This document shows, one piece after another, positions 3,909 to 23,396 of a DNA stretch of 64,000 nucleotides. This DNA comes from Candidatus Micrarchaeota archaeon (GTDB taxonomy: Archaea > Micrarchaeota > Micrarchaeia > Anstonellales > Bilamarchaeaceae). The notes beneath the pieces are model-generated. The model saw only the letters and a program-made list of their open reading frames with translations. It made no database searches and was not told the DNA's origin. The stretch spans positions 57,025-121,024 of the forward strand of contig JBBSVN010000012.1 in the NCBI GenBank assembly GCA_038046765.1, written 5' to 3'. Both the position numbers and the translations under genes were made by a program. How positions within the stretch are numbered: the stretch's first letter is position 1; each line of letters starts with the position of its first letter.

Positions 3909-6425
3909 TTATCCCTGCTTATTTTGACTAGTTTTTTTATTGTATAAAAATAAACCAATACCTAAAAATAAAAATACATAAAGTAACGGACAAATTGTAT
4001 TATTAAAAACTCTTTTAACTGGTGGTTTTGTCTCTGTTGTTTCATTTGTATCTGGATCATTTATTTCATTTGTAGTTCCAGTTTCTTTTTTACCTTCTGT
4101 TTGTAATCCTTTAGCCATAAATTTAACTGTACAAGCATCTCCAACAAAATCCCCATTTGAATCTTTTTGATCACTGTTTGAAATTTTAGGGCAGTTATCT
4201 AGTGTATCAACAATGCCATCTTTGTCAATATCGCTGCATCCTTCATCAATTAATCCATCGCCATCATTATCTTGCCCATCGCAAGCTTCGCCTAAAAATG
4301 GAACTAATGGTGGATATCTTTCATCAGTATCTTCGCTTATTTTTCCTAAATTATTTCTTATTGCGTTTAATTCCGGACAGCTATTTTTAAGACTAGATAA
4401 TCCAATCACATCATTTTCTGTCATAGTTCCGTTAATTCCATAATACGGGCAGCCGATAGGAAGTATGGCGTTTTTCCAGTCATTAGTTCCATTTAATTTA
4501 GTTAATGAACCATTTGCAGTGTCATATTCATTATCTCTATTTCCGTTTACGTTTACAGTCTGGCTTCCTGCAAAATTACTATCGCAATTCCAGTCAACTG
4601 CTGAACCATTTAATCCAAACATAATCATTAAACTGGAATTTGTACGAGTGCGTCCAATTACACCATTTCCAAAAGCTGCGCTTCGTCCGTTGTTTGTACA
4701 AGTATAATAAGAAAGCGCCAGCGGATTAGATGAAATAATTCCATTTGTTTCACTTAAACCTGCATTCTCGTCAAGCGTGCTAAGTTTTTCATCTGAATAA
4801 TCTAAATCATAAATAATTCCTAAAGGCGTATTTCGTGGAATCCCGCTAAATTGGAAATAGTAATTCATGATGCTTCGATAATTTGGTTTAAAGTGCGTGT
4901 TATCAAATGCAAGTTCTTTTTCTAACCTGCCGCCATGACCTAGCATCAATGTGTGCCCAAATTCATGCATTAACGTTCCTGCTACTGCAGTAGTATTTGA
5001 ACCGTTGCGCATTGCAACAAAGAAATTTCCACCTACTGTTGCCTGGCCAGTTGTATTTTCCTTTTCATGCGTAAATATTCCGTAACGAAATATTCCCGCT
5101 CGATTTATATCAAAATTATCTTTTTTTATGTCAAACAAATATTTACTATTATTTGTATAAAATGCGCGCGCTTCGTTACTGTCATTTAAAGAAAACTGGT
5201 CCCATTCTGCCTGCGGTTGTTCTGTGATTGCATTTCCTTCGCCCCATTGTCCAATATCAATATGCAAAGTTATATCTCTATTAGCAAATGCGTTAACTAC
5301 CATCTGTAACGATTCATTTGTTGGTTTATGTGTGTGAGAGCCATCTTCCATCCAATCAAGTTCTAAAAACAAATCCTTCTTTAGTGGGTTAGCCCCCATT
5401 GCGGGTAAATCTACCAGCGTTCGTCCATTTTTAACTAATCCATAAACTTCTAAACCATCGCTTAAGCCATCTGCATCTGTATCTGCGTTCTTCGGGTCTG
5501 TTCCAAAAACGCTTTCATTTATATCGACAATTCCATCTTTATCACTATCAATTTTCATCCATGCGTCGGGGTCAGGAATTTCTATATTCCAGGAAACGCT
5601 CCAGGGTGTGCTGCCGTAAACTGATATTGGGCCTGCATATGTCAGTCCTCCAAAATCTACATTTGAATATCCTGAAATTATACTCGCTTTCATCTGGTTT
5701 CCAGTTGGTTCAAGTGCTTTAAATGATCCGGAATAGGAAAACTGGTTTTCAGGATTTGCGTCAAACAATGTAATTGGGACGGAAAAAGTACCTGCAGTTA
5801 ATCGTGAAAATGTTGTTGTTTGCCTCGCACCACTACAAACTGGATTTATATTTGGGGAAGTTTTAGTTACCTGCGTAATGTCTGTTTTAGTTACTGGAAT
5901 TATTAATTTTCCAGCTAAAGAAAGTTCGGGATTTCCACTTAAGCCTGTTTTTTTGTAAATTAATTTTAAATCATAACCTTTTAGGTGAATCAAATTCCCG
6001 TTTGAGTCTTTGCCGTTACCTGTGCTATATGGGACATTTAAGTTTGAAATTTTGTCGGACCCAGTAGCATTAACTTCTGTTATATATGCGCATTCCTTGC
6101 CCCCCGTATTAGTCTGCTGGTCAATACTCCACTCTACTGCCTCGTTCTGAAATTTAAAAGCCCGATCAGAATATCTAGTAAGGGAGTCAGAGTTCGGATC
6201 AATTTCTAAAAGATACCCAGAAATCTTAAAATTTAATTTTTGCTTTACTGAACCTGTGTTTGTTTGAACATTGTATGGCCCAGTATAATCATAAACAAGC
6301 GTAATCGTGGTTAACTTATCTGAAACAGAATAATTTTTCGATGTATCGTTCTCAATTGCATAAGCAAAGTTCAATATTAATAAAACAAAAACTCCAAAAT
6401 AAGTCAATTTAGTTAAAAATCTCAT
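3909..6425 (-). CDS. Secreted, C-terminally membrane-anchored metzincin-like zinc metalloprotease with TSP3-type Ca-binding repeats
   Basis: Signal peptide; HEFGHTLMLGH Zn motif and SIMNY Met-turn; DSDKDG, DTDADGLSDG, CDGQDNDGDGLIDEGC and DIDKDGIVDTLDNCP repeats; C-terminal hydrophobic helix plus basic tail. Confidence 0.8.
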   Translation of the reverse strand: MRFLTKLTYFGVFVLLILNFAYAIENDTSKNYSVSDKLTTITLVYDYTGPYNVQTNTGSVKQKLNFKISGYLLEIDPNSDSLTRYSDRAFKFQNEAVEWSIDQQTNTGGKECAYITEVNATGSDKISNLNVPYSTGNGKDSNGNLIHLKGYDLKLIYKKTGLSGNPELSLAGKLIIPVTKTDITQVTKTSPNINPVCSGARQTTTFSRLTAGTFSVPITLFDANPENQFSYSGSFKALEPTGNQMKASIISGYSNVDFGGLTYAGPISVYGSTPWSVSWNIEIPDPDAWMKIDSDKDGIVDINESVFGTDPKNADTDADGLSDGLEVYGLVKNGRTLVDLPAMGANPLKKDLFLELDWMEDGSHTHKPTNESLQMVVNAFANRDITLHIDIGQWGEGNAITEQPQAEWDQFSLNDSNEARAFYTNNSKYLFDIKKDNFDINRAGIFRYGIFTHEKENTTGQATVGGNFFVAMRNGSNTTAVAGTLMHEFGHTLMLGHGGRLEKELAFDNTHFKPNYRSIMNYYFQFSGIPRNTPLGIIYDLDYSDEKLSTLDENAGLSETNGIISSNPLALSYYTCTNNGRSAAFGNGVIGRTRTNSSLMIMFGLNGSAVDWNCDSNFAGSQTVNVNGNRDNEYDTANGSLTKLNGTNDWKNAILPIGCPYYGINGTMTENDVIGLSSLKNSCPELNAIRNNLGKISEDTDERYPPLVPFLGEACDGQDNDGDGLIDEGCSDIDKDGIVDTLDNCPKISNSDQKDSNGDFVGDACTVKFMAKGLQTEGKKETGTTNEINDPDTNETTETKPPVKRVFNNTICPLLYVFLFLGIGLFLYNKKTSQNKQG

Positions 6426-6476: not shown

Positions 6477-7349
6477 ATGGCAAAAAAGAAAAAAGGAATA
6501 ATTTACTATGTTATTGCTTTTCTTGGACTAATTTTTAGTGCAGTCAAATTCCTTCTGACTGGAACTTTTAAAATTATTAAATTTCTTGCTATTGCTACTT
6601 ACAATTTTCTAAATTTTTTATTTAAATTTGCTCAAAATTCAATCCAAAAGTCAAATGAACTAAGAAAAGAAGTCGCAAAAGAAGTTATTCGTCCTATAAT
6701 TACTGCAACATACTCTGCGTTTGTAGAATTAGAGGAAAAAGCAGGAAATTTACAAGATTTTGAAAATCACATCTATTCTGATAAAAGTTCGGTTGGTTTG
6801 ATTCTAGGCGCCCGGGGGTCGGGTAAAAGTGCAATTGGTTTACGCATTCTTGAAAATATTGTCGCAAAATCAAAGCGCAAGGCTTACGCTATGGGCTTTA
6901 ATAAAGAAGATTTGCCAAAGTGGATCGAATCTATTAATTCTATTGAAGAAGTCAAAAATAACTCATTCTTGCTTGTTGATGAAGGTGGGGTAGAATTTTC
7001 TTCTAGGCAAACGATGTCAAATGCGAATAAATTACTAAGCGAATTACTTTTGATTAGCAGACACAAGGATCTAAATGTTCTTTTTATTACTCAAAACTCT
7101 TCAAATATTGAAGTTAACGCAATAAGGCAAAGCGATTATCTTGTTCTTAAACCACCATCACTTTTGCAAATGGATTTTGAAAGAAAGAAAATAAAAGATA
7201 TTTATGAAAGTGTTAAGGAAAAATTTACTTCCTACAAGGATCAGGTTGGTCTAACTTATATCTATTCTGACCGGTACACTGGCTTTGTGAAAAATGATCT
7301 TCCTTCCTTTTGGAGTAAAAAGGTTAGTACAGCTTATAGCGCCAAATAG
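6477..7349 (+). CDS. Membrane-anchored P-loop ATPase, Zot/pI-like (FtsK-HerA superfamily)
   Basis: N-terminal hydrophobic segment; Walker A GARGSGKS; Walker B LLVDEGG; SRHKDLNVLFITQ...IR pattern (Arg, then hhhhTQ). Confidence 0.6.
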   Translation: MAKKKKGIIYYVIAFLGLIFSAVKFLLTGTFKIIKFLAIATYNFLNFLFKFAQNSIQKSNELRKEVAKEVIRPIITATYSAFVELEEKAGNLQDFENHIYSDKSSVGLILGARGSGKSAIGLRILENIVAKSKRKAYAMGFNKEDLPKWIESINSIEEVKNNSFLLVDEGGVEFSSRQTMSNANKLLSELLLISRHKDLNVLFITQNSSNIEVNAIRQSDYLVLKPPSLLQMDFERKKIKDIYESVKEKFTSYKDQVGLTYIYSDRYTGFVKNDLPSFWSKKVSTAYSAK

Positions 7350-7946: not shown

Positions 7947-8396
7947 TTATCTGCAAGTTGGAGCCATCGTTAACATTTTCTCTCCTCTCTTTTCCTTTAG
8001 GTGGCTTCCGATTATTTTTACAACTGGTCTTTCATCACTTGCTCGTGTGTAAAGCGTTCCATGCCATTCTTTAATTCCAAATTGATCGTTTAATAATTCT
8101 AAAACTGTATTAACGTCAAAGCATCTACAGGAATACAAGTCAAAGTAAAATTCGTTTGACCCATCCTTGTGAGTAAATAAATGCATCGAACAATGGCTAG
8201 TTGTAATCATCTGTACAAAGCTCTGACCTGGAAAATCCAAATCAACTGCATCGGCCCAGTTTAATGGTCCTAGCGGCTTCATTTCTATTGCTTTTAGCAA
8301 CCTATCCACAAAACGCTGTGCATCTTCCCTAGGCAAAGCCTTAAAAGAGGGCGAGATCTTCGCGTTAACCGTCAAATGTATATGTTCTAACGACAT
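7947..8396 (-). CDS. S-adenosylmethionine decarboxylase (SpeD/SpeH)-like pyruvoyl proenzyme
   Basis: PGQSFVQMITTSHCSMHLF and FYFDLYSC match the G.S....L.ESH.S.H and D.F.C pattern of the family; T replaces the usual E before the cleavage Ser. Confidence 0.7.
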   Translation of the reverse strand: MSLEHIHLTVNAKISPSFKALPREDAQRFVDRLLKAIEMKPLGPLNWADAVDLDFPGQSFVQMITTSHCSMHLFTHKDGSNEFYFDLYSCRCFDVNTVLELLNDQFGIKEWHGTLYTRASDERPVVKIIGSHLKEKRGEKMLTMAPTCR

Positions 8397-12039: not shown

Positions 12040-13398
12040 TTAAATCAGCCTTATTTCTTTATTTTCCTTATCAAGTTGCATTAAACTAACTGTTGCACCA
12101 TTTTTAGTTGCTTTTTTTATTGCAGGGTTTTGACACAGAACTTGCTTTAAGAAATTTAAAACTTCTGGATCAGAATGTACAATCACAATATGTCCCGTAC
12201 TTTTAACACAATTAACAGAAGCAAGTGCATATTCAATGCTTCCAAGTGCTTCTTCGCTTAATTCTGCGTTTTTCAAACTAACCGCGAATAACTCGTTTAA
12301 ATCTGCACCAAAGAACGTGCGGCCATTTGTTACATTGCCTAAATCTTTTGGATCGCTTAAAATTATCGCGTGAGCATACTGTTCTGCAAAAGTTTTTCCT
12401 GCAATTTTAGCGTGCATGATCGCGATTCGCACTTCGGATGTGGTTTCTGAAACAAAATCAGATAATTCTCTTGTTTTAGAATAAGTAAGTCCTAAATCAG
12501 TTGTATTAAATCCGATTACTCCCGCATATACTTTTATTTTTCTTTCTCTTACAATATCTAAATTAGCTAATACTTCTCTTTGATATTCTGTGTTATTGAT
12601 AAATATGTTGGGGTGACCAGAGCCTTTTATGTGGATTCGATCTAATAACCTATCAATGCTTTGGCTTTTTCCGCGGTGTTTATGTTCGTCTTTTTTAACT
12701 AAGCATGCTCCGCAACCAATGTGGCCAATAACAAAAATTTCGCCATTTTCCTTAAGTTTGTCTATTACTGCACGTACTTCATCAGTTACTGCATTTCCCG
12801 CAATCTGTACAGTTGCTATGTGTTTACCCTCATAATGCCTAAGAGACGTAGCCTCACACCTGGAATCAGAACACATTAATACAACTGCGTCATACTCTTT
12901 AGGTGTTTTTACTAAAGTACGTTCAAGTGCTCCTTTAGCTCCTGCAATTAAAATTTCTCTTGACGCTTTGATGTCAAGGAGTCCTTGTTTTGCTATTATT
13001 CTTTTTAAGTCATCTATATAAAACGGATTTTTTCTGCTTTCTCTTACTGAATCTGGAATAAGTAATCTTTCACTTCGAGTAAAACTTCTTGGTCGTGCTA
13101 CTTCTTTATCTGTTTTTCTTGGGTCTTCTCTATGCTCTACTCCTCTTAATTTTTGTAACGAAAGAATAATATTTTCTGCATCTTTTAATCTTTTTTTAGC
13201 CGTTTTGTCCTTTTTGTTTTGAATCAGTTTTTCCTTAATCTTTTCTATATTGGCAACATTGAATTTCCGATCTCCAAGAATTAGCGTAGCTTCAGGAAAA
13301 TTCTGCTTATTTAAGTCTAAGCAAAAATCAATTAATTCCTGGTGAAGCATAGGATCGGTAATCTGAATATTTTTTAACTTCAAGTCCGGACACTTCAA
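12040..13398 (-). CDS. Tandem-domain beta-carbonic anhydrase-like protein (domain 1 intact, domain 2 degenerate)
   Basis: Domain 1 has CSDSR, IAGN and GHIGCGA (all three Zn ligands plus the Asp-Arg dyad). Domain 2 has HAIILSDP..ELFAV..ALGSIEYAL..HIVIVH without Cys ligands. About 150 aa N-terminal extension; TTG start after GGCGA. Confidence 0.8.
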   Translation of the reverse strand: MKCPDLKLKNIQITDPMLHQELIDFCLDLNKQNFPEATLILGDRKFNVANIEKIKEKLIQNKKDKTAKKRLKDAENIILSLQKLRGVEHREDPRKTDKEVARPRSFTRSERLLIPDSVRESRKNPFYIDDLKRIIAKQGLLDIKASREILIAGAKGALERTLVKTPKEYDAVVLMCSDSRCEATSLRHYEGKHIATVQIAGNAVTDEVRAVIDKLKENGEIFVIGHIGCGACLVKKDEHKHRGKSQSIDRLLDRIHIKGSGHPNIFINNTEYQREVLANLDIVRERKIKVYAGVIGFNTTDLGLTYSKTRELSDFVSETTSEVRIAIMHAKIAGKTFAEQYAHAIILSDPKDLGNVTNGRTFFGADLNELFAVSLKNAELSEEALGSIEYALASVNCVKSTGHIVIVHSDPEVLNFLKQVLCQNPAIKKATKNGATVSLMQLDKENKEIRLI

Positions 13399-13447: not shown

Positions 13448-14458
13448 CTATGCTAGAATAAAAGTTTGGCCATTCATCTTGTTGAACTTCATCAGGGTAA
13501 TTAGTTTTCCATTTTGGCTCTTTTCTTTTATTATTTTACTTTCAAGAATCTGTTTTTTTAATTCCTTAACTGTATCACTATCTGTATGAAGTATCATTAT
13601 ATGTGGTGAGTCCTTAACTCCATGAACCTTTAATAGTGCATCTTCTATTGCTGCAATTGATACTGTAGCTATTTTCTTACCAAAGTTACTCACGCATATA
13701 ATTTCGTTTAAATTTCCGTCAAAGATTATTCTGGGGTTGTTTACTAAACCTAGGTCTAGTGGGTCGCTTAAAATAATTGTATGTGCATATGCTGCATTCA
13801 AATTTACTCCCTGGTTTTTAGCCTTTGTTAATCTGCTGCTTAAACTTCTTTTTAATCCGTTTATACTGTTGCTTGGTTTACCATCTTTTAGAAATCGTAT
13901 TGGTTCAAGACTATTTGTAAAATCTGCAAGTACTGGTATTATTGCTGCTTTTTTAGATATTAAAATTTCGTTGTGTTTTAATTTTTCTACCTGGTTTATT
14001 GCATTTGCAGAGTATATATCTTTTGCAAAACTATCCTTTTTACCAATTTCCACGTGACTAATTAAATTATCTATGCTGTTACTAATTCCTCGGTTATTGC
14101 TTTCCTGTGCTTTTAAATCACATTCATAGCACATTAGCGATCCGCAGACAATTACTTCTCCATCTTGTTTTATTCTGATAAATCCGTTATCCAAATCATC
14201 TGTTACTATCTGCCCTGCAGTTTGTATGTTTAAAATTTTTTGTTCTAGGTAATCTGTTAGAATTGTTGGATCAGTGCGTGGTCCAGTTGATGAAACTAAA
14301 ACTAAATCATATTCCGCCGGTTTAGCCAAGTTCGCTTTCTTTTGGGTTATTTGCCTTACAAATGCTGCGTTTCCTGCAATTAACAAATCAAGCGATTCTT
14401 TTACTAAAATTGGTTGCTGCGTTTGTACTTTCTTCATTACGACATCGAGTAATACCAT
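13448..14458 (-). CDS. Tandem-domain beta-carbonic anhydrase paralog with degenerate Zn site
   Basis: Collinear with 12040-13398 (LIAGNAAF; TAGQ; AYAHTIILSDPLDLG). CSDSR is replaced by STGPR and GHIGCGAC by GSLMCYEC. ATG 14458 follows GAGGTG. Confidence 0.7.
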   Translation of the reverse strand: MVLLDVVMKKVQTQQPILVKESLDLLIAGNAAFVRQITQKKANLAKPAEYDLVLVSSTGPRTDPTILTDYLEQKILNIQTAGQIVTDDLDNGFIRIKQDGEVIVCGSLMCYECDLKAQESNNRGISNSIDNLISHVEIGKKDSFAKDIYSANAINQVEKLKHNEILISKKAAIIPVLADFTNSLEPIRFLKDGKPSNSINGLKRSLSSRLTKAKNQGVNLNAAYAHTIILSDPLDLGLVNNPRIIFDGNLNEIICVSNFGKKIATVSIAAIEDALLKVHGVKDSPHIMILHTDSDTVKELKKQILESKIIKEKSQNGKLITLMKFNKMNGQTFILA

Positions 14459-14559
14459 CGAACGCACCTCTGGTGGATAATTAGTACTTTATAGTAATAG
14501 CTTATGCTAGTAAAGAATTAAAAAAAGGAAAGATTAAATTATTTGAAAAATATTTAAAA

Positions 14560-15102
14560 TTATTTTCTCATTTTCTTGGATTTTTCCTCTAAGATCATTC
14601 CCGCTTTAAGAAGTCCTGCCAGAAGTTGATACGGGTTAGGTGGGTTTCCAGGTACATTTACATCAACTGGTACAGTATCTTCAACTTTTCCGCTTCCAGC
14701 TAATGCATAACTACCTTGATATGGAAAACCCGTAACTGCACCATCTCCTGCTGCGACAACTACGCGCGGGTCTGCCATCGCATCATAACTTTTCTCAAGT
14801 GCAAGTTTCATATTCATTGTAACTGGACCTGTAACAATAATTACATCTGCATGCCTTGGCGAGGCTACATAGTGGATTCCAAATCTTTCTGCATCTACAC
14901 GCGGGTTCATCATCATCTGTTCTTCAAGTTCGACATCGTTTGGCGAACCAGCGTCAACCATTCTAACGTGTATTGACTGCGCAAAAGGGTTAAGACTGCG
15001 TTTTTTAAGTAGTTCTGCAACCTCTCTAATATCTGGGTCATCTGAATTAGGATCTATACGGTCCGGATATTTTTCAAAAAGGAATTTGAATATTTCAAAC
15101 AT
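14560..15102 (-). CDS. NuoB/HycG/HyfI-like small subunit of an Ehr-type complex, lacking all Fe-S cysteines
   Basis: ERFGIHYVASPRHADVIIVTGPVT and VPVDVNVPG are diagnostic; ligand positions read GSPNDV, GDGA and PGNPP; there is no Cys in the protein. Confidence 0.9.
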   Translation of the reverse strand: MFEIFKFLFEKYPDRIDPNSDDPDIREVAELLKKRSLNPFAQSIHVRMVDAGSPNDVELEEQMMMNPRVDAERFGIHYVASPRHADVIIVTGPVTMNMKLALEKSYDAMADPRVVVAAGDGAVTGFPYQGSYALAGSGKVEDTVPVDVNVPGNPPNPYQLLAGLLKAGMILEEKSKKMRK

Positions 15103-15111
15103 ATTTACACC

Positions 15112-16668
15112 TCACAAATCAGTACCTGCGTAAGACATATTAAAGCTTTTATTTATAAGCGGGAAATCTGGCACAATATTTCCAGGAACTAAATTTTCCG
15201 CGCCACGCCAGTTACGAAAAGATGCTGTCCTGCATCTAAAACTTTTTATTGTTCCATTATCCATTAGTTCAATCATGAATGTACAAGAACCTCTTGGTGC
15301 CTCTGCCCATCCTAAGCTCCATACACTTTTACGCGATTTTGAAACTGGTACTGGTGCAAGAATCTCGCCATTAGGCATCTTGGCAATTACTGTCTTTATG
15401 ATTTCAACTGCTTGTTTTACTTCTGCAATTTTTACTAGGAACCTGCATAATACGTCTCCTCCCTCTTCCTTCTGTTCGCTAAACTTGACCTTATCATAAA
15501 ATTCGTAAGGGAAGTATTTTCTTACATCGCAGCTATATCCTGCTGCACGAGCGACAGGTCCAACTAAAGATAATTTTTGCGCAACCTCTGTTGTAACTAT
15601 TCCTGTTGAATAAACCCGATCAAGATATGTTGAGTTTGTCAATGTAACTGTTTCAAGTGTGTTTAATCTATTGACAAAGTTGTCAAGTTCGCTAACTAAA
15701 ACACTAATTTTAGTCTCATCTAAGTCTGCTTTTACCCCTCCTGGTGTACAAACTCCCCCTAAGAACCTATGGCCAGTTATTTTATTATTAAGGCGCATCA
15801 TATCCTCGCGCAAAACGGCGAATCTAGATGCTGCGAAATAAAATCCGACATCTGTTGGCATTCCGCCTAAATCCGATAAATGACTGTATATTCTTTCAAG
15901 TTCAGCTAAGATCACTCTTATTGCCTGCGCTCGTTCTGGAACTTTTATATCTAGCGCTTTTTCTACCGCTGTACAATAGCCGATCATATTCGCAATTCGT
16001 TCATCTCCTGAAATCGATTCTATAAGTGGTATTGCTTCGGTTATATTTTTTCCTTCAACTAGTTTCTCAACCCCCCGATGAAGGTAGAACATTCTTGTTT
16101 CAAGTTTGTTTATTGATTCCCCGACCACGCTGAATCTAAAATGTCCTGGTTCGATTATACCTGCGTGAACTGGGCCAACTGGAATCTGGAATTCACCTTC
16201 GGCACCCGTCATCGGCATTTCGTAAACGTAATCTGCATTTTTACCCAATCTTTTCTTCTGACCTTCTATATTTTCTAATCCGCCATCAGGATGGAAAAGT
16301 ATTGGACGTGAATCTGGAATGTTATCAAATCTAAGTCCGCTTAAATCCTGCATTTTCCTCTCATCCCATACTGCTGCGTTAACAACTGCAGAAACTGCAT
16401 AAAATTCCTTGCCTTCTGCATATAATACTGCGAATGTTTCAAGAGCTGGCACACGAAAAACATATGATGCCTGAAAGTTTCCTTTTTCTAAATCACTTAT
16501 AAATGAGCTATCGAATAATGCATTCTCTTTAATCATTTTTTCACTTAAACCTGGCAAATCTTTGGAATTACATTTTATCCAGACTATTCCTGATTGTTCA
16601 ACAGAAGAAATTTTTGCATTAGCAGATGACTCAAGCTGTTTTAAGAATTTTTCTAATTTAGAATCCAT
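15112..16668 (-). CDS. NuoCD/HycE/HyfG-like large subunit without NiFe ligands (EhrL type)
   Basis: WDERKMQDL, GPVHAGIIEPGHFRF, HRGVEK, ELERIYSH, EAPRG; L1 position reads ESISGDE (no CxxC) and L2 position reads SFNMSYAGTDL (no DPCxxC). Confidence 0.92.
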   Translation of the reverse strand: MDSKLEKFLKQLESSANAKISSVEQSGIVWIKCNSKDLPGLSEKMIKENALFDSSFISDLEKGNFQASYVFRVPALETFAVLYAEGKEFYAVSAVVNAAVWDERKMQDLSGLRFDNIPDSRPILFHPDGGLENIEGQKKRLGKNADYVYEMPMTGAEGEFQIPVGPVHAGIIEPGHFRFSVVGESINKLETRMFYLHRGVEKLVEGKNITEAIPLIESISGDERIANMIGYCTAVEKALDIKVPERAQAIRVILAELERIYSHLSDLGGMPTDVGFYFAASRFAVLREDMMRLNNKITGHRFLGGVCTPGGVKADLDETKISVLVSELDNFVNRLNTLETVTLTNSTYLDRVYSTGIVTTEVAQKLSLVGPVARAAGYSCDVRKYFPYEFYDKVKFSEQKEEGGDVLCRFLVKIAEVKQAVEIIKTVIAKMPNGEILAPVPVSKSRKSVWSLGWAEAPRGSCTFMIELMDNGTIKSFRCRTASFRNWRGAENLVPGNIVPDFPLINKSFNMSYAGTDL

Positions 16669-16670
16669 AT

Positions 16671-18143
16671 TTAAACACCCCCGATTAAACTACCTGCATC
16701 TTTTATTAAATTAAGAACTGGTGCTGGAGGGAACAATGCTAATGCTATTGCAAGAAGCAAAAGCGCAATCACTGAAAATGACATGTAAGGACTTACTTCT
16801 ATATGTTTTGGCATTTTTTCCGGCTTATTACCAAAGACCATATCTGAAGCTTTGTAGAGGAAACTTGCAAATGCAATTACTGTAAATACGATTACAAAAA
16901 GAGCAACTAGGTATTGTCCCTTTGATAATGCGCCTCCTAGAAGTGCAATTTCAGAAAAGAACGTACCAAATGGGATACTTCCAGCCACTCCTAAAACAGC
17001 TAGTAAAAATAAAAGTCCAAAAACAGGTACTGCGCTTGCAGCTCCCTTTATATCTGGCATATTTTTAGTGCCATATGCATTTGTTATAATTCCACCTAAA
17101 AGAAATGCTAATGGTTTAGCTAAAGAATGAGCAAGCATATGGAATAATGCTGCAAAAATTGCTATTGGTCCACCAATTCCAGTAGCTAGTACAATAATTC
17201 CCATATTCTCTACGCTTGAATATGCTAAAAGTCGCTTAAGGTTATCTTGTGCAAAAAGACGAAGCGCGCCTACAACTAGGGAAAGCACGCCAAATAGTAT
17301 AAATAATCCTGACGCAAAACCTGCAATTTCTGGTGACAAGATTACAATTCCATATACTCTTAATATTCCATAAAGGGCTATATTTAATATAAGTCCGGAT
17401 AGTAAAGCACTAACTGGAGTTGGTGCCTGACTGTGCGCATCTGGAAGCCACACATGCAACGGTACAAGACCAACCTTTGTCCCGTATCCAACTAAAACGA
17501 ATACGAATGCAAGTTTAAGGTATAGTGGGTTTATTTTGGTAATATCAAACGGTGTTCCGTAAACTGGGGTTTCTAAACCTCCCTGTGCAAATGCATAAAA
17601 TAAAACAAGAATTCCAATAAATGCCAGTGTAAATCCAACAGAATTTATTGTAAAGTATTTCCATGCTGCTTCTATTGAAGCTTTGGTGTTGTAAAAACTT
17701 ATCAAAAACACTGATGAGAGTGTTGTAAGTTCAACTGCTGCCCAAACGTGAATTGGGTTTGATGCTAAAAGTCCAGTTAGCATTGCAGCTAAAAACAGGG
17801 AAAGCTGTGCATAAAATCTTGCGAGCCTGTCTTCTTTAATTATTCCTTCTTCTACTTCATGGCGCATATATCCTACAGAGTAAATAAATACCAGTAGTGA
17901 AACAACTGATGTAATTCCTATTAAAAATGCTGATAATGCATCCATTCTAAGTAGTTCTGAGAAATCTGAAATCGGTGCCCCGCTACTTATGAAAATTGAT
18001 ATTGAAAATAGTGCTGCACCAACTGCTCCAAGAGCGCCTAAACATGCAACTAATTCTGCAAGTCGCGGGTGTTTACCTAAAAATACAGCAATTATTCCTG
18101 CAATTACCGGGAAAAGAATAATTAATTCAAGCATAAATATCAC
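16671..18143 (-). CDS. hyfF: Proton-translocating antiporter-like subunit (HyfF/NuoN-like)
   Basis: WAAVELTT, EAAWKY, GTKVGLVPLHVWLPDAHSQAP, KRLLAYSSVEN, PFGTFFSE. Confidence 0.88.
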   Translation of the reverse strand: MIFMLELIILFPVIAGIIAVFLGKHPRLAELVACLGALGAVGAALFSISIFISSGAPISDFSELLRMDALSAFLIGITSVVSLLVFIYSVGYMRHEVEEGIIKEDRLARFYAQLSLFLAAMLTGLLASNPIHVWAAVELTTLSSVFLISFYNTKASIEAAWKYFTINSVGFTLAFIGILVLFYAFAQGGLETPVYGTPFDITKINPLYLKLAFVFVLVGYGTKVGLVPLHVWLPDAHSQAPTPVSALLSGLILNIALYGILRVYGIVILSPEIAGFASGLFILFGVLSLVVGALRLFAQDNLKRLLAYSSVENMGIIVLATGIGGPIAIFAALFHMLAHSLAKPLAFLLGGIITNAYGTKNMPDIKGAASAVPVFGLLFLLAVLGVAGSIPFGTFFSEIALLGGALSKGQYLVALFVIVFTVIAFASFLYKASDMVFGNKPEKMPKHIEVSPYMSFSVIALLLLAIALALFPPAPVLNLIKDAGSLIGGV

Positions 18144-19816
18144 CTTTTTTCATTAAGTTCAGCAAGTTCTCCAGTGTCAACGGTTTTCGCAATACTCTGG
18201 ATTTTAAGCGCTAAAACTACTGATACAACTACCAATACCAATATATCAAAAAGCGTAATTGCTTCGGATATAAGCGGGATGTCCACACCAAGCGCAACTG
18301 GTAAAAGTACAATTCCGTTTTCCATTATCAAAAATCCTAACATCTGTAAAAGAATGTGCGTTTTTGTTGAAATAATTAAAAGACCTATTAAAATTATTGA
18401 AAGTGCAATTGGTAAAACTATTCCTGCAGTCAGGCTTGAACCCACTAAAAATGATACGGAAATAAGTAACACTGAAATTACTAATGCTGTCGTAGTTGTA
18501 ACTGGCGCATCGATAAATAATGGGTCGATATCGATTAAGCTTCTTAATTTCACATTCGTGTGCTTTAGTACATCGGTTATTCCCTCTGGTGTGAGGTTCG
18601 TTTTATCAAGTAAATTCTCTCCTTTTGCCATCTGGTTAAAAATTCGATATATCAAAAGCGGTAAAATTATTACCTTTAAAATTACTGTAATGCCTAGTCT
18701 TAAATAGCTGTCAACTGAACCTGTTTTAACTGCTATAAGTGCAAAAATTATTCCAAGTGCAACGTTTTGCAATAAATATATCTCTATTCTTCTTTTGAAC
18801 GTCGCTCCAAAAAGGAAATATAAATTGCTTATTAGCATTACGCAAAGTAATATTGGGACTGTACCGTTTGCGTTTGGGTCTGGATTAATATGTATTAAAA
18901 ATGCGAATACTGCCAAATTCAAGGCAAAGACAAGAAGCTCGGCAACTTTAAATAATCTGACCTTGACGCTAAATGATTCAACTATTGCTGTAATTACTCC
19001 CAAAACTAGTACTGTTGCTAAAATTGCGGCTGTTCGGGATATCGGGTCGCTAAATAATGCAAGCGGAAAAAATAAATTTGCAAAAAGCGTGAAAAATAAA
19101 AACATTTTTGAAGCTTGCGCCCATTCTATAAGTCCAAGGCTTGGGCCAGAATTTTCAAGAATCATTGCCTCGTGGACCATTGTTAGTTCTAGGTGTGTAG
19201 CTGGGTTATCAAAAGGAAGTCTGCCCATTTCAGCTAGCATCAATATAAATAATGCGGCAGCTGCTAAATAAAATGTTGGCGAACTAAGAATTCCGAACCA
19301 GTTGTTTGGTCCATTTGCAGTGAATATCATTAAGTTGGTACTTCCTGAAAATAATACTAAAAATAAAATTGCTGCAAAAAGGACTGGTTCAATTAAAACA
19401 GAATATAATGATTCCCTGCTTGAGCCTAATCCTCCAAATGCGCTAGCTGCATCCAGGCCAGATAAGATTACTACAAATCTGCCTATTGCAAAAAGATAAA
19501 CGAATATTATTATGTCTGCTACAAATGGCGGAACTGCGGTAAATATTGGTAAAAGTAATGTTGCAGCTACTGTTGAAACAAAAATAAAAATCGGTGTCGC
19601 TAAAAAGATCCATGAACTAATATCGCTTCTAACTGTTCCTTTACTAAATAATTTTACAAGGTCGAAATATGGTTGTATTATTGAAGATCCGCTCCTACCC
19701 TGACAATATGCTTTGACTTTTCTTATGACTCCAACTAGGAGCGGTGAAAGCGCAAAAACAAATAAAATCTGTACAATCATTCCTAAAACTGAAGATATCA
19801 TTGTCATAAATATCAC
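18140..19816 (-). CDS. Fused HyfC (NuoH-like) and HyfE-like membrane subunit
   Basis: N-half: RKVKAYCQGRSG, QPYFDL, FGGLGSSRE, EMGRLPFDNPATHLELTMVHEAMILE (HyfC). C-half: LKVIILP, QMLGFLIMENGI, EAITLFDI (HyfE). One uninterrupted ORF. Confidence 0.85.
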   Translation of the reverse strand: MIFMTMISSVLGMIVQILFVFALSPLLVGVIRKVKAYCQGRSGSSIIQPYFDLVKLFSKGTVRSDISSWIFLATPIFIFVSTVAATLLLPIFTAVPPFVADIIIFVYLFAIGRFVVILSGLDAASAFGGLGSSRESLYSVLIEPVLFAAILFLVLFSGSTNLMIFTANGPNNWFGILSSPTFYLAAAALFILMLAEMGRLPFDNPATHLELTMVHEAMILENSGPSLGLIEWAQASKMFLFFTLFANLFFPLALFSDPISRTAAILATVLVLGVITAIVESFSVKVRLFKVAELLVFALNLAVFAFLIHINPDPNANGTVPILLCVMLISNLYFLFGATFKRRIEIYLLQNVALGIIFALIAVKTGSVDSYLRLGITVILKVIILPLLIYRIFNQMAKGENLLDKTNLTPEGITDVLKHTNVKLRSLIDIDPLFIDAPVTTTTALVISVLLISVSFLVGSSLTAGIVLPIALSIILIGLLIISTKTHILLQMLGFLIMENGIVLLPVALGVDIPLISEAITLFDILVLVVVSVVLALKIQSIAKTVDTGELAELNEKR

Positions 19817-21792
19817 ACCATAACTGCGTAAATAAGAATTGCAACCATGACAAATAGCATGTACATCAAGTAATGTAATAATTTTCCTGTCTGGAATATT
19901 GAAGACCTGGACGAAATTGCTCTAAATCCATTTTCTATTGGCTTATAAATAACTGCCTCGAAAAATGCAGGCCCATACGCATTCTTTTCTGTATTAAGCG
20001 GATTAAGCCATCTGTTTAATGCCCTTTGAATTGGCATTGAAATTCCTATTGGGGTATATTCCATTTTTGATTCTACTTTATGTATTCCGCAATCCCATGT
20101 AACCCTAGTAACATCATTTGCTTTTGTAAATGCTCGAATAATCCAGAGGAATGCAAAAACTGCAATTGTCGCCCCTAATAAAACCAATACGATTCCAAAT
20201 GAAGGAAGGGTAAATACAACTTTTGATGTTGCGCTCATATCGCTAATATTTAACTTTGCAAACATCGGGCTAATTATCGAAAATATTATTGTTGGGAAAA
20301 CTCCCGCTATAATACACGCAATTACTAGTATGATCATTCCTATGTGCATTAACGAACCTACTTCTTTAGCGTGTTCAACATGTTCGCTTCTAGGTAATCC
20401 TAAAAATACCATTCCAAATGCCTTAACAAAAGCTGCTAATGCCAGTGCACTTGTAAATGCGAGGACTAAAACAACTGCACCAAATAAGAATGCAATTAAT
20501 TTAGGAAGTGCTAATCCTGACAAAAGTGCCTGGAACATAGTCCATTCGCTTGCAAAACCATTTAATGGTGGCAAAGCAGAAATTGCTGCTACGCCGACAA
20601 AGAACAAAATTGCAACTACTGGTAGTTTCTTTATCAACCCACCCATTGCGTTCATGTCTTTAGTGTGTGTTGCGTAAGCAACTGCTCCTGCTCCTGTAAA
20701 TAAAAGACTTTTGAAAAGCGCGTGATTTAATGAATGGTAAAGTGCTGCAAATAATGCTAATGCTGCTAATGCGTCCATGTTTAAACTATGAAATAATACT
20801 GCAGCTCCAATTCCTAAGAAGATAATTCCTATGTTTTCTACACTTGAATAAGCGAGAAGTCGTTTTAAATCTTTTTGAATTATCGCATATAATACTCCGA
20901 ATACGCAGGACACTGCTGCTAATAATAATAATAAAATTCCCCACCAGAAATGGAATGGAGTTGCACCTAAAAAGTCAAATAATACCCGAATTATTCCGTA
21001 AATTGCTACTTTTAACATTACTGCGCTCATTAAAGCGGATATATTACTTGGTGCCTGGGGGTGTGCTTCTGGTAACCATGTATGAAATGGCATTAAACCA
21101 GCTTTTGATGTAAACGCGATTACTGCCAACACAAAAATGATACTTGCTAACATGGGTGTTAAACTAATTGTTCTAAATCCGGCAAAGTCCATGTTTCCTG
21201 AAAATCCAGTGAAAACCAGGAACATTAAAATTAATGCAACTGCACCGATATGCGTTATTAGTAAGTATATAAAACCAGCATCTTTTGTTTTTGCTTCCTT
21301 GCTTTCATATGTTACAAGGAAAAATGAGCTAAGTGCCATTAGTTCCCAAAAAATTAAAAAAAGAAGACCGTTTTGAGAAGTTACAACTGCAATCATAGAC
21401 AAAATAAAAATATTATAAAGAAAACCAAATAACGCGTTACTATATCCTTTTTCCTGGTACTCTTTCATGTAATCTATTGAATATATCGAAACTGCTAGTC
21501 CAACTAAAGAAATTAATAATATGAAAAATCCAGAAAGCGCGTCAATACTAAAAGTTAAATTTCCAATCGGGGCAAAATTTCCCAAGTTTAATGGTGCAAT
21601 ATTTGTGCCCATCATTACCATAAGCCCAGCTATTACTCCAATAATGCAACCTAAGATTGCAAATAAAAATGAAAGTTGCCTGCATAAATTTTTCCATTTG
21701 GATAAAACAAGCGACACTAAAGAACCAAATAAAAATAAAACAAAAAGGCCTAATAAACTCTGAGCGGTAAAAAGTTCAATCAAATTAACCAT
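19813..21792 (-). CDS. hyfB: Proton-translocating antiporter-like subunit (HyfB-like)
   Basis: FWELMALSS, SKAGLMPFHTWLPEAHPQAP, MLKVAIYG, KRLLAYSSVEN, NHALFKSLLF, LPPLNGFASEW, TWDCG. Confidence 0.9.
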   Translation of the reverse strand: MVNLIELFTAQSLLGLFVLFLFGSLVSLVLSKWKNLCRQLSFLFAILGCIIGVIAGLMVMMGTNIAPLNLGNFAPIGNLTFSIDALSGFFILLISLVGLAVSIYSIDYMKEYQEKGYSNALFGFLYNIFILSMIAVVTSQNGLLFLIFWELMALSSFFLVTYESKEAKTKDAGFIYLLITHIGAVALILMFLVFTGFSGNMDFAGFRTISLTPMLASIIFVLAVIAFTSKAGLMPFHTWLPEAHPQAPSNISALMSAVMLKVAIYGIIRVLFDFLGATPFHFWWGILLLLLAAVSCVFGVLYAIIQKDLKRLLAYSSVENIGIIFLGIGAAVLFHSLNMDALAALALFAALYHSLNHALFKSLLFTGAGAVAYATHTKDMNAMGGLIKKLPVVAILFFVGVAAISALPPLNGFASEWTMFQALLSGLALPKLIAFLFGAVVLVLAFTSALALAAFVKAFGMVFLGLPRSEHVEHAKEVGSLMHIGMIILVIACIIAGVFPTIIFSIISPMFAKLNISDMSATSKVVFTLPSFGIVLVLLGATIAVFAFLWIIRAFTKANDVTRVTWDCGIHKVESKMEYTPIGISMPIQRALNRWLNPLNTEKNAYGPAFFEAVIYKPIENGFRAISSRSSIFQTGKLLHYLMYMLFVMVAILIYAVMV

Positions 21793-22160: not shown

Positions 22161-23396
22161 ATGTCTGTAGATTTAAGAAGAATTAGTCACAAACTTAAAT
22201 TAAGCGAAATGGATATAAGTGCAATCCCAAGTCTGCGTAGATCTACTACCCCGTTATCTATTCCTCAGTCTGCTTTTGAAATATTTCGTGGCTTTAGCCT
22301 ATTTAATGAAAGGATTAGGCCAACTAAACTTCTAGGTGTACGTTTTGAACGAGTTGCTGGTCAGGCCTTTGACAAAAAGGATTTGCATTCCAGGGAAGCT
22401 ATAAGAAGAAATTTATTAAGCATAAAACAAAAAGGTGCATTTTTAATTTTAGGTCATGGTGGGGAAATTGGTTGTGGTGCAATTAAGGGAAAGCAAAATC
22501 CAAATCCATCCCAACCTCAATTAGTAAAAGATTTAGTTGAGCATATATCCGAAAGAGTCATAGGATTAGATGATTTGCAGTATGCTGCTTCTATAGAAAA
22601 TGCTTTATTTCAAGGCATAAAAATTTTACACGATCCTGAATTTGCAGCAATAATTAAAGAAAAAGATATTACTGTTGTTTATGCTGTTTGCAATGGTGAT
22701 GCCAACTATTCCTATAATGCCTTAAATAAAGGGCTTAATGAAAATGCACTTCTATTTAAGCACCCAAAGTTACAGCAATTAAGAGAACAGTTCCAGCATG
22801 GGTTAGCTAAAGTTTCAGAATTTGGCATAGATCTTAAGAAACAGTATGCTTATGCTGCATTTGGTTATGATCCAGCTGAACTTGCATCTGTAATAGATAA
22901 ATATAGCACTGAAATCGAACTAGGGGGGGTATGCTGTGTTGATTCAAGACTTCCACCACATACTGGTGTTTACTATTTACTTCGAATTGAACCAAATGAA
23001 GCCTTTTCAGGAACATTTCATCATTCAATTAGGCCTGATGGTGTTTATCAACCAATAATTTCTAAATTAGCGGCTGGGAGTATAGAATTTGGTCTTCAAA
23101 ATGTTTGTGGAATAAATAGTCTAAATCCCGATAATCCTGGAAATGGGCATTTAGTTATGCTTGCAACTAGTCTAGCTAATGCAAGAAAAATGAAAGAAAC
23201 TGTACTTCAATTCTCTGGTACTGCTCGCGCAACAAAAGATGGAAAAACAATTTCACTACTTAGTTTTGATGGAAAAGAGTTAGTAATGCAAAATGATTCT
23301 CTTGGTTTTGATTTGGTTGCATCTTATGATTCTCCCGCTCAAATACTTACGCGACCTCCATCTGAATTTGCAGAACTTATGGATCAACGAGCCTAG
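22161..23396 (+). CDS. Third tandem-domain beta-carbonic anhydrase paralog with split Zn-ligand motifs
   Basis: N-domain VAGQ and LGHGGEIGCGAI; C-domain QYAYAAFGYDP, CCVDSRLP, GSIEFGL, GHLVML, ATKDGKTISLL, aligning with the two paralogs at 12-14.5 kb. Confidence 0.7.
   Translation: MSVDLRRISHKLKLSEMDISAIPSLRRSTTPLSIPQSAFEIFRGFSLFNERIRPTKLLGVRFERVAGQAFDKKDLHSREAIRRNLLSIKQKGAFLILGHGGEIGCGAIKGKQNPNPSQPQLVKDLVEHISERVIGLDDLQYAASIENALFQGIKILHDPEFAAIIKEKDITVVYAVCNGDANYSYNALNKGLNENALLFKHPKLQQLREQFQHGLAKVSEFGIDLKKQYAYAAFGYDPAELASVIDKYSTEIELGGVCCVDSRLPPHTGVYYLLRIEPNEAFSGTFHHSIRPDGVYQPIISKLAAGSIEFGLQNVCGINSLNPDNPGNGHLVMLATSLANARKMKETVLQFSGTARATKDGKTISLLSFDGKELVMQNDSLGFDLVASYDSPAQILTRPPSEFAELMDQRA

Follow-up and report, generated by a model that had tools for sequence, protein, structure and literature searches.

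Ehr complexes are widespread, and it has been proposed that they stand between hydrogenases and complex I as an intermediate, their function being unsettled to date. The accessible text of the published work assumes that they couple redox reactions to ion translocation (PMC6349859), and mentions missing metal-binding cysteines for large-subunit sequences only (PMC7304191). The small subunits of the Hyq complexes, according to the accessible part of their description, contain four cysteines for an N2-type [4Fe-4S] cluster, which are conserved in all orthologs (PMC3357923). In the field of inorganic carbon supply, the accessible portions of the respective papers propose for DAB that an influx of ions drives CO2 hydration or bicarbonate uptake (bioRxiv 10.1101/476713), and report that MpsAB and carbonic anhydrase (CA) can substitute for one another in experiments and tend to be distributed in an either-or fashion (PMC6689103).

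The published description of Ehr, as far as it is accessible (PMC6349859, PMC7894505), fits a five-gene operon in the genome of a Candidatus Micrarchaeota archaeon. This operon lies within the window, by which we mean the whole analyzed stretch of DNA of 64,000 nucleotides (Table 1). Elsewhere the window codes for: 1) a P-loop NTPase at 6477-7349 (+), which has a hydrophobic segment at its N-terminus and weakly matches nSTAND and Zot-type NTPase profiles; 2) an S-adenosylmethionine decarboxylase-like protein of 149 aa at 7947-8396 (-; PF02675); 3) a protein of 838 aa at 3909-6425 (-), with a likely signal peptide, Asp-rich repeats, a C-terminal hydrophobic anchor and a HEFGH motif, which we take to be zinc-metalloprotease-like.

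Table 1. Genes of the Ehr-type operon and its CA-like neighbours in the window
Feature	Position	Strand	Length	Remarks
Divergent beta-CA-like protein	12040..13398	-	452 aa	Full zinc motif C176-x-D-x-R, H226-x-x-C229; PF00484 E 1.3e-7
Degenerate beta-CA-like protein	13448..14467	-	339 aa	STGPR replaces CxDxR; 92 bp downstream of small subunit
Small subunit (NuoB/HycG/EhrS-like)	14560..15102	-	180 aa	N2 sites P54, V57, G121, N153; clade-specific D56
Large subunit, fused NuoC+NuoD-like (EhrL/HyfG type)	15112..16668	-	518 aa	
HyfF-like antiporter-type subunit	16671..18143	-	490 aa	E138, K223, H339, K343, E398 conserved
NuoH/HyfC-like + HyfE-like membrane fusion (HyfC+E)	18140..19816	-	558 aa	E135, E196, D203, E210 conserved
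HyfB/NuoL-like antiporter-type subunit	19813..21792	-	659 aa	E150, K230, K261, H353, H357, K361, E416 conserved
Two-domain beta-CA-fold protein (A2 family)	22161..23396	+ (divergent)	411 aa	H99...C105 in domain 1; C259-x-D-x-R in domain 2

The small subunit and its former N2 ligand sites

The small subunit matches the Oxidored_q6 family (PF01058) with an E-value of 1.7e-20, and its best solved relatives are MbhJ (6cfw_J) and HycG (7z0s_G). An alignment with these solved relatives places GSPNDV (P54, V57) opposite GSCNGC, GDG (G121) opposite GAC and PGNPP (N153) opposite PGCPP, and the ERFG, SPRHAD, TGPVT and PVDV motifs are retained around the former N2 sites. The original prediction for this gene had claimed that all four N2 ligand cysteines are substituted in a protein that has no cysteine at all, and that the surrounding motifs are conserved in an intact ORF; the aligned ORF, which is uninterrupted and codes for zero cysteines, agrees with it on each count. 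Absence of cysteine from the whole protein is by itself unremarkable: 57 of the 273 ORFs of 150-210 aa in the host genome are free of it, and 107/110 close relatives of the small subunit possess cysteines at non-ligand positions. What counts is the loss at the ligand sites, and this is not due to chance, because the ligand cysteines are absent in all 110 close relatives recovered among the best 120 of 6417 matches to the small subunit (108 at all four sites; two partial sequences at the three sites covered) and kept by seven of the nine remaining sequences among those 120 matches. These seven display the full CCCC pattern, and the other two represent a second Cys-less type. The 110 relatives constitute the Cys-less clade among Oxidored_q6 homologs whose existence the original prediction had left to be established.

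Synonymous sites of the small subunit are mostly saturated, and the sole unsaturated pair yields a dN/dS of 0.13, i.e. purifying selection, the outcome that the original prediction had anticipated. Across 13 loci, the mean identity of the small subunit is 64%, vs 52-54% for the large, HyfF and HyfC+E subunits, making it the best conserved of the four subunits measured. Several simple accounts of the substitutions were considered and ruled out. A pseudogene or relaxed selection is ruled out by the intact ORF, the 110 relatives and a pS that is far above pN. A cluster site moved elsewhere in the protein is ruled out for the window copy by its lack of any cysteine, and the extra cysteines of relatives at positions 51 and 123 are variable. 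Finally, a loss forced by missing Fe-S assembly is ruled out by SufBD, which is present in 5/5 carriers tested, and by radical-SAM-type motifs in the genome; hence, the loss of the N2 ligands was not forced.

The genes for the partner subunits share the strand of the small subunit and lie upstream of it, the gaps being 9, 2, -4 and -4 bp as one moves from the small subunit through the large, HyfF and HyfC+E subunits to HyfB. Judged by this spacing, the operon is a candidate for co-transcription; a sigma-70 promoter scan remained at chance level, the sigma-70 consensus being unsuited to an archaeon. Both NiFe CxxC motifs of the large subunit are replaced (SISGD at 218 and NMSYAG at 510), and in the five carriers tested the operon's own large subunit is the sole PF00374 match. 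No ferredoxin-like gene was found in the five-gene operon. To judge from the encoded proteins, the operon retains none of the canonical redox cofactor sites. The charged residues of the antiporter-type and NuoH-like subunits do not vary across the 14-15 Micrarchaeal rows in which they are covered, the exception among these ion-path residues being H335 of HyfF (13/15 rows); we take these residues of HyfB, HyfF and HyfC+E to have the functional roles usually attached to them.

As to function, the original prediction had offered either a non-redox role or a new site built from Asn/Asp substitutes. The first of these is favoured by the clade-wide loss of ligands, the purifying selection, the absence of NiFe ligands and of a ferredoxin-like subunit, and the intact Suf system. 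The second fares poorly: Pro, Val and Gly take up three of the four positions, and the substitutes found in other Cys-less lineages are not the same. Site 4 is Asn in 13/15 Micrarchaeal sequences and Asp or Asn in 16/16 other Cys-less sequences, and a cation pocket would be conceivable there, as it is the only site at which an Asx recurs. D56 is invariant in 15/15 Micrarchaeal sequences, the equivalent position being Gly or Ala in the Cys-keeping ones. The invariant D56 and the recurrent Asx are also what could be cited for a complex that is still a redox enzyme, in which N2 would be replaced by a metal site without cysteine (D56, D120, N153, E58) or by a partner that dissociates; the accessible portions of the published Ehr/Hyq models likewise assume electron transfer (PMC6349859, PMC3357923). 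We regard such residual redox activity as very improbable, given the Pro, Val and Gly at three sites, the variation of the substitutes between lineages, and the absence from the window genome (G000) of both a PF12838 match and a 2[4Fe-4S] motif among its 1575 ORFs of >=70 aa, a search that shorter ferredoxins would escape.

The Cys-less small subunit is patchily distributed in the phylum: 14/401 genomes, including the window genome, contain a match at E<1e-60. The weaker matches, which come from other genomes of the phylum, lie mostly beside group 4-type large subunits that keep DPCxxC (14/18 loci). A further set of 148 representatives of 50%-clusters includes 14 with no ligand cysteine and six with one or two, and the named members of two Cys-poor clusters are Chloroflexota (10 proteins looked up). 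Among the 101 small genomes around G410, nine match the small subunit; eight of these matches are Ehr-type with most or all ligands lost where readable, and one is a complex I gene. In a tree of the large subunit, the 15 Micrarchaeal rows group together as one branch of their own. The 24 Cys-less rows require three changes on this tree, and a single origin is not rejected by the AU test (single clade, p 0.267). Family f6 is found in both Micrarchaeal sub-branches, which suggests horizontal transfer. Four further small subunits (P0211, P0251, P0165, P0258) have lost most or all N2 ligands and have an N-terminal ferredoxin-like domain that keeps some cysteines; based on these sequences, they are possible intermediate stages of cofactor loss.

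Divergent carbonic-anhydrase-like neighbours

The three CA-like genes flanking the operon are the only matches to our CA-like profiles at E<1e-12 among the 1575 ORFs of the host genome, and the gene for the 452-aa protein, which starts 49 bp further downstream of that for the 339-aa protein on the same strand, is also the genome's sole PF00484 match. A structural model of the two-domain A2 protein (pLDDT 80) has the two-domain beta-CA 1ddz as its best structural match (Z 17.9, rmsd 3.6, 284 aligned). With the motif split between the two domains, a zinc site formed across them is possible in this family. Strong A2 matches were detected in 15/401 genomes, all of which belong to family f1. Another family found near these operons, A4, is present in 22/401 genomes (e.g. 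L120:14852-15985 and L001:1976-3196, where a long insert separates the His from the second Cys) and has no CA match in Pfam. A profile comparison of A4 with canonical CA was weak (probability 24%), and it was the fold search that settled the assignment to the beta-CAs, the best match of the model being again 1ddz (Z 16.3, rmsd 3.6, 263 aligned). Additionally, proteins of 675-740 aa with a CxDxR-like motif and no informative Pfam match are encoded near the operon in L120:5256-7304, L126:12563-14785 and L129:2400-4427.

After leaving out L001 as a duplicate of L124, a CA-like gene was found within 3 kb of the operon in 13/15 Micrarchaeal Cys-less loci. Ten of these were recognized by profile, a count that is circular to the extent that genes from these very loci built the profiles, L119 by a sub-threshold PF00484 match, L125 by motif only and L128 via its continuation L129; no CA-like neighbour was present within 3 kb at L121 and L127. 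By profile, the Cys-keeping operons have such a neighbour in 2/150 loci, or 2/68 whole operons, a control that may be undercounted because the profiles missed all bacterial CA-likes. An independent Pfam scan (102/242 flanking ORFs, 28/65 control loci, E<=1e-5) places a CA-like neighbour beside 1/28 Cys-keeping operons. In two loci (L047:10476-11135 and L235:10633-11301), the first gene after a Cys-keeping Ehr operon, in the same orientation, codes for an ordinary beta-CA. In four Methylococcales loci (L050:1784-2833, L052:1824-2873, L058:1906-2955 and L065:1861-2910), a gene for a SulP-family transporter immediately precedes the Cys-keeping Ehr operon in the same orientation, which hints that Ehr complexes with the cluster may likewise be tied to inorganic carbon.

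The bacterial Cys-less operons present a comparable picture with other families. Among the seven whole operons, two from a small-genome lineage (L163, L168) follow CsoSCA-like genes that score above the Pfam cut-off, the neighbour of another is nearest to clusters in which Pro_CA_2 makes up 15% of the members, and near two more only a similar motif is seen. The neighbour gene at L036 (G410) has Patescibacterial sequences as its nearest Atlas clusters. Furthermore, the Cys-less operons L161, L167 and L188 of small-genome bacteria adjoin genes for the F-type ATP synthase, which in L167 follow on the same strand; L162 and L211 show this adjacency by sequence appearance.

The neighbours come from several barely related families and every orientation is represented among them, a variety that speaks against a fixed subunit of the complex. 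A4 occurs without the operon in 15/22 genomes and A2 in 10/15 of the strong-match genomes. A complex prediction for HyfB with the 452-aa protein (single run, one pairing) scored 0.00, which speaks neither for nor against binding. The main alternative, in which the CA-likes are functionally related pH genes rather than partners, is an Mrp-like exchanger of cations and H+, free of redox chemistry, that would serve pH or Na+ homeostasis or turn one ion gradient into another, with the hydrophilic arm of the complex acting as a regulatory or structural cap. The intact antiporter-type subunits, the Na+/H+ exchanger or related transporter genes near L117, L161 and L036, the ATP synthase genes adjoining L161, L167 and L188, and the two loci without a CA-like neighbour (L121, L127) would all be compatible with this proposal. 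However, the separate small Mrp-type subunit genes are absent from the operon, and the soluble small subunit has diverged less than either of the two membrane subunits measured. Moreover, such an exchanger would leave unexplained why ordinary CA is absent in 10/10 carriers and why it occupies the same site in non-carriers (see below); we therefore consider the exchanger rather unlikely, although it is the strongest of the alternatives.

Exchange with ordinary carbonic anhydrase

Ordinary CA was scored as a best PF00484 match of E<=1e-20 over the 401 phylum genomes. In f1 and f6, the two best-sampled families, the best PF00484 scores leave the range from 1e-16 to 1e-25 empty, and ordinary beta-CA is present in 0/10 operon carriers vs 83/95 non-carriers. 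The difference recurs by genus, with 0/3 carriers vs 24/25 non-carriers, 0/2 vs 12/13, 0/2 vs 1/2 and 0/1 vs 1/1. The Fisher p of 2e-8 for this comparison, made on genomes that are about 70-100% complete, overstates its significance because the genomes are related. One further genome (G003), whose operon is known from contig-end fragments only, was dropped from the carrier count; it is also without ordinary CA. Ordinary CA is likewise absent in 12/95 non-carriers of f1 and f6. Outside these families, G176 (L121) combines the operon with a PF00484 match at E 1.1e-23, the carrier G340 has a weak PF00484 match, and G123 and G165 have none. No strong PF00484 match was detected in the 101 genomes of the small-genome bacterial lineage, the best E-value being 3.8e-6. 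Strong gamma-CA-like matches are seen in 5/11 f1/f6 carriers vs 3/24 non-carriers (p 0.08), with none in the window genome; going by these matches, gamma-CA-likes could partially compensate in some carriers.

Since genes of the divergent CA-like families are also seen where the operon is missing, we inspected 20 such sites. Nine of these contain an ordinary CA of about 190-220 aa, which in eight cases is next to, or within three genes of, eRF1. In seven carrier loci the operon itself occupies the eRF1-adjacent site. Genus g35 illustrates the arrangement: L145 has eRF1, CA and A4, and L122 and L124 have eRF1, A4, the operon and A4. The same island also includes purE in L123 and L132, and purK in L136. 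By analogy, this either-or pattern of operon and ordinary CA resembles that of MpsAB/DAB and CA.

The pattern could in principle be produced by the divergent CA-likes alone, as a soluble replacement of CA, with the operon performing an unrelated non-redox job and merely sharing a variable eRF1/cdc6 gene island. The full zinc motif of the 452-aa protein is in line with this, as is the operon tree, in which host families are intermingled as they would be for a mobile cassette. Genomes G001 and G023 contain CA-likes, namely an A3+A2 pair at the window's site, with neither the operon nor an ordinary CA, an arrangement which implies that the 452-aa protein could be a plain soluble CA. Yet, among the non-carriers with the same CA-like families, ordinary CA is kept by 13/15 of those with A4 and 7/10 of those with A2, so that the operon is a better predictor of CA absence than the divergent CA-likes. 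This, together with the recurrence of the CA link in bacteria with unrelated CA types, makes a stand-alone role of the CA-likes unlikely.

A possible bicarbonate supply system and its known counterparts

The loss of the N2 ligands and the carriers' want of an ordinary CA suggest that an ion gradient, rather than electrons, is likely to supply bicarbonate. Hence, we propose, with a probability of roughly 45%, that the cluster-free Ehr-type complex is an ion-gradient-coupled bicarbonate supply system standing in for ordinary CA. CarB, PurE, H+-PPase, A/V-ATPase subunit I and SufBD are each encoded in 5/5 carriers tested. In the proposed mechanism, an H+ or Na+ gradient from the H+-pyrophosphatase or the A/V-ATPase would run inward through HyfB/HyfF, and this influx would drive one-way CO2 hydration or HCO3- uptake. 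The reaction might take place in a divergent CA-like partner or at the conserved interface of the NuoH-like, large and small subunits, and the small subunit would be retained as a scaffold and coupling element. The bicarbonate produced would feed carbamoyl-phosphate synthase and purine carboxylation. In cyanobacteria, free cytoplasmic CA short-circuits a bicarbonate pump; in the carriers it would be either redundant or harmful in this manner, and would consequently be lost. The varied identity and orientation of the neighbours, the loci L121 and L127, the co-occurrence in G176 and the 12 CA-less non-carriers speak against the bicarbonate reading. As for other routes of bicarbonate supply, 27 genomes, 15 of them carriers, yielded no DabA (PF10070) in a search whose control was positive in 2/14 reference genomes, SbtA was not found in 15 genomes, and the SulP-family match in the window genome is weak (E 1.3e-5).

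The coupling might also be imagined in reverse, with the outflow of fermentative CO2/HCO3-, or of CA-made protons, building up an ion gradient for the ATP synthase. An operon with neither a ferredoxin-like subunit nor an electron-input module, and the three bacterial loci that adjoin F-type ATP synthase genes, could be accommodated by such a scheme. But CO2 crosses membranes freely, so that little energy could be stored in this way, and the hosts own an H+-PPase and need bicarbonate for CarB; accordingly, we hold reverse coupling to be quite unlikely.

Returning to bicarbonate supply, the dropping of N2, the cluster by which electrons pass in published models, from a conserved subunit indicates that the Ehr scaffold can be useful without that redox centre, and the exchange with ordinary CA makes the function of Ehr directly and cheaply testable. 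If the proposal is true, the complex would be a new carbon-concentrating machine that explains the bicarbonate supply of some DPANN archaea and Patescibacteria, and it would furnish a naturally occurring form of the coupling interface of complex I that is free of cofactors. More tentatively still, it might join DAB/MpsAB and Cup as a third class of energised pump for CO2 or bicarbonate, namely a redox-stripped complex-I-like scaffold that is run by an ion gradient and swapped with ordinary CA at one site. Should this be so, inorganic carbon supply would be the job of Ehr complexes generally, and the N2 cluster a dispensable relic. Our literature search, which covered few subscription papers, turned up no paper describing a small subunit of Ehr that is Cys-less, or a link between Ehr and CA.

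Among the known systems, Ehr has the same gene set as the window operon (antiporter-like, NuoH-like, HyfE-like, large and small subunits), and the invariant residue set of the large subunit is common to the Cys-less copies and 104 Cys-keeping loci. Ehr is defined, in the accessible text, by a large subunit without Ni/Fe-coordinating cysteines (PMC6349859, PMC7304191), and SISGD and NMSYAG take their place here. The Geobacter sulfurreducens operon GSU0739-45 and the rhizobial Hyq (HyqBCEFGI) comprise the same subunit types, and the BCEFGI order is as in Hyq. In contrast to Hyq, whose small subunit has four cysteines, the window complex has none of the four, and in contrast to both Hyq and Ehr, HyfC and HyfE are fused in the window and the operon is situated among CA-like genes. 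The group 4 [NiFe] hydrogenases (Hyf/Hyc/Mbh) provide the closest profiles and solved relatives for each subunit; however, they possess two CxxC motifs, the N2 cysteines and a ferredoxin subunit, none of which is found in the window complex.

The Mrp antiporter consists of the MrpA-G set, with small MrpE/F/G subunits and no hydrophilic arm, whereas the window operon comprises five genes including those for NuoH-like, large and small subunits. The likeness to DAB/MpsAB lies in an antiporter-type subunit (PF00361), a beta-CA-like protein nearby and the absence of redox subunits, as in the accessible parts of 10.1101/476713, and in the either-or distribution with ordinary CA, as in those of PMC6689103. 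Unlike DAB, which is a two-protein unit, the window complex has two antiporter subunits (HyfB, HyfF) in addition to NuoH-like, large and small subunits, no DabA is present in the 27 genomes, and the CA-like neighbours vary. NDH-1MS/Cup is similar in that a complex-I scaffold is tied to vectorial CO2 hydration (10.1101/476713, accessible text); it is thought to be driven by electron flow via the N2 cluster of NdhK/NuoB, whereas the window complex has no N2 site, and the Pfam scans of the window's flanking genes returned no CupA/CupB match. Taken together, on the evidence of its gene sequences, the window complex is an Ehr by the published definition, yet one without the four cysteines of Hyq, and is distinct from DAB, Cup, Mrp and the hydrogenases.
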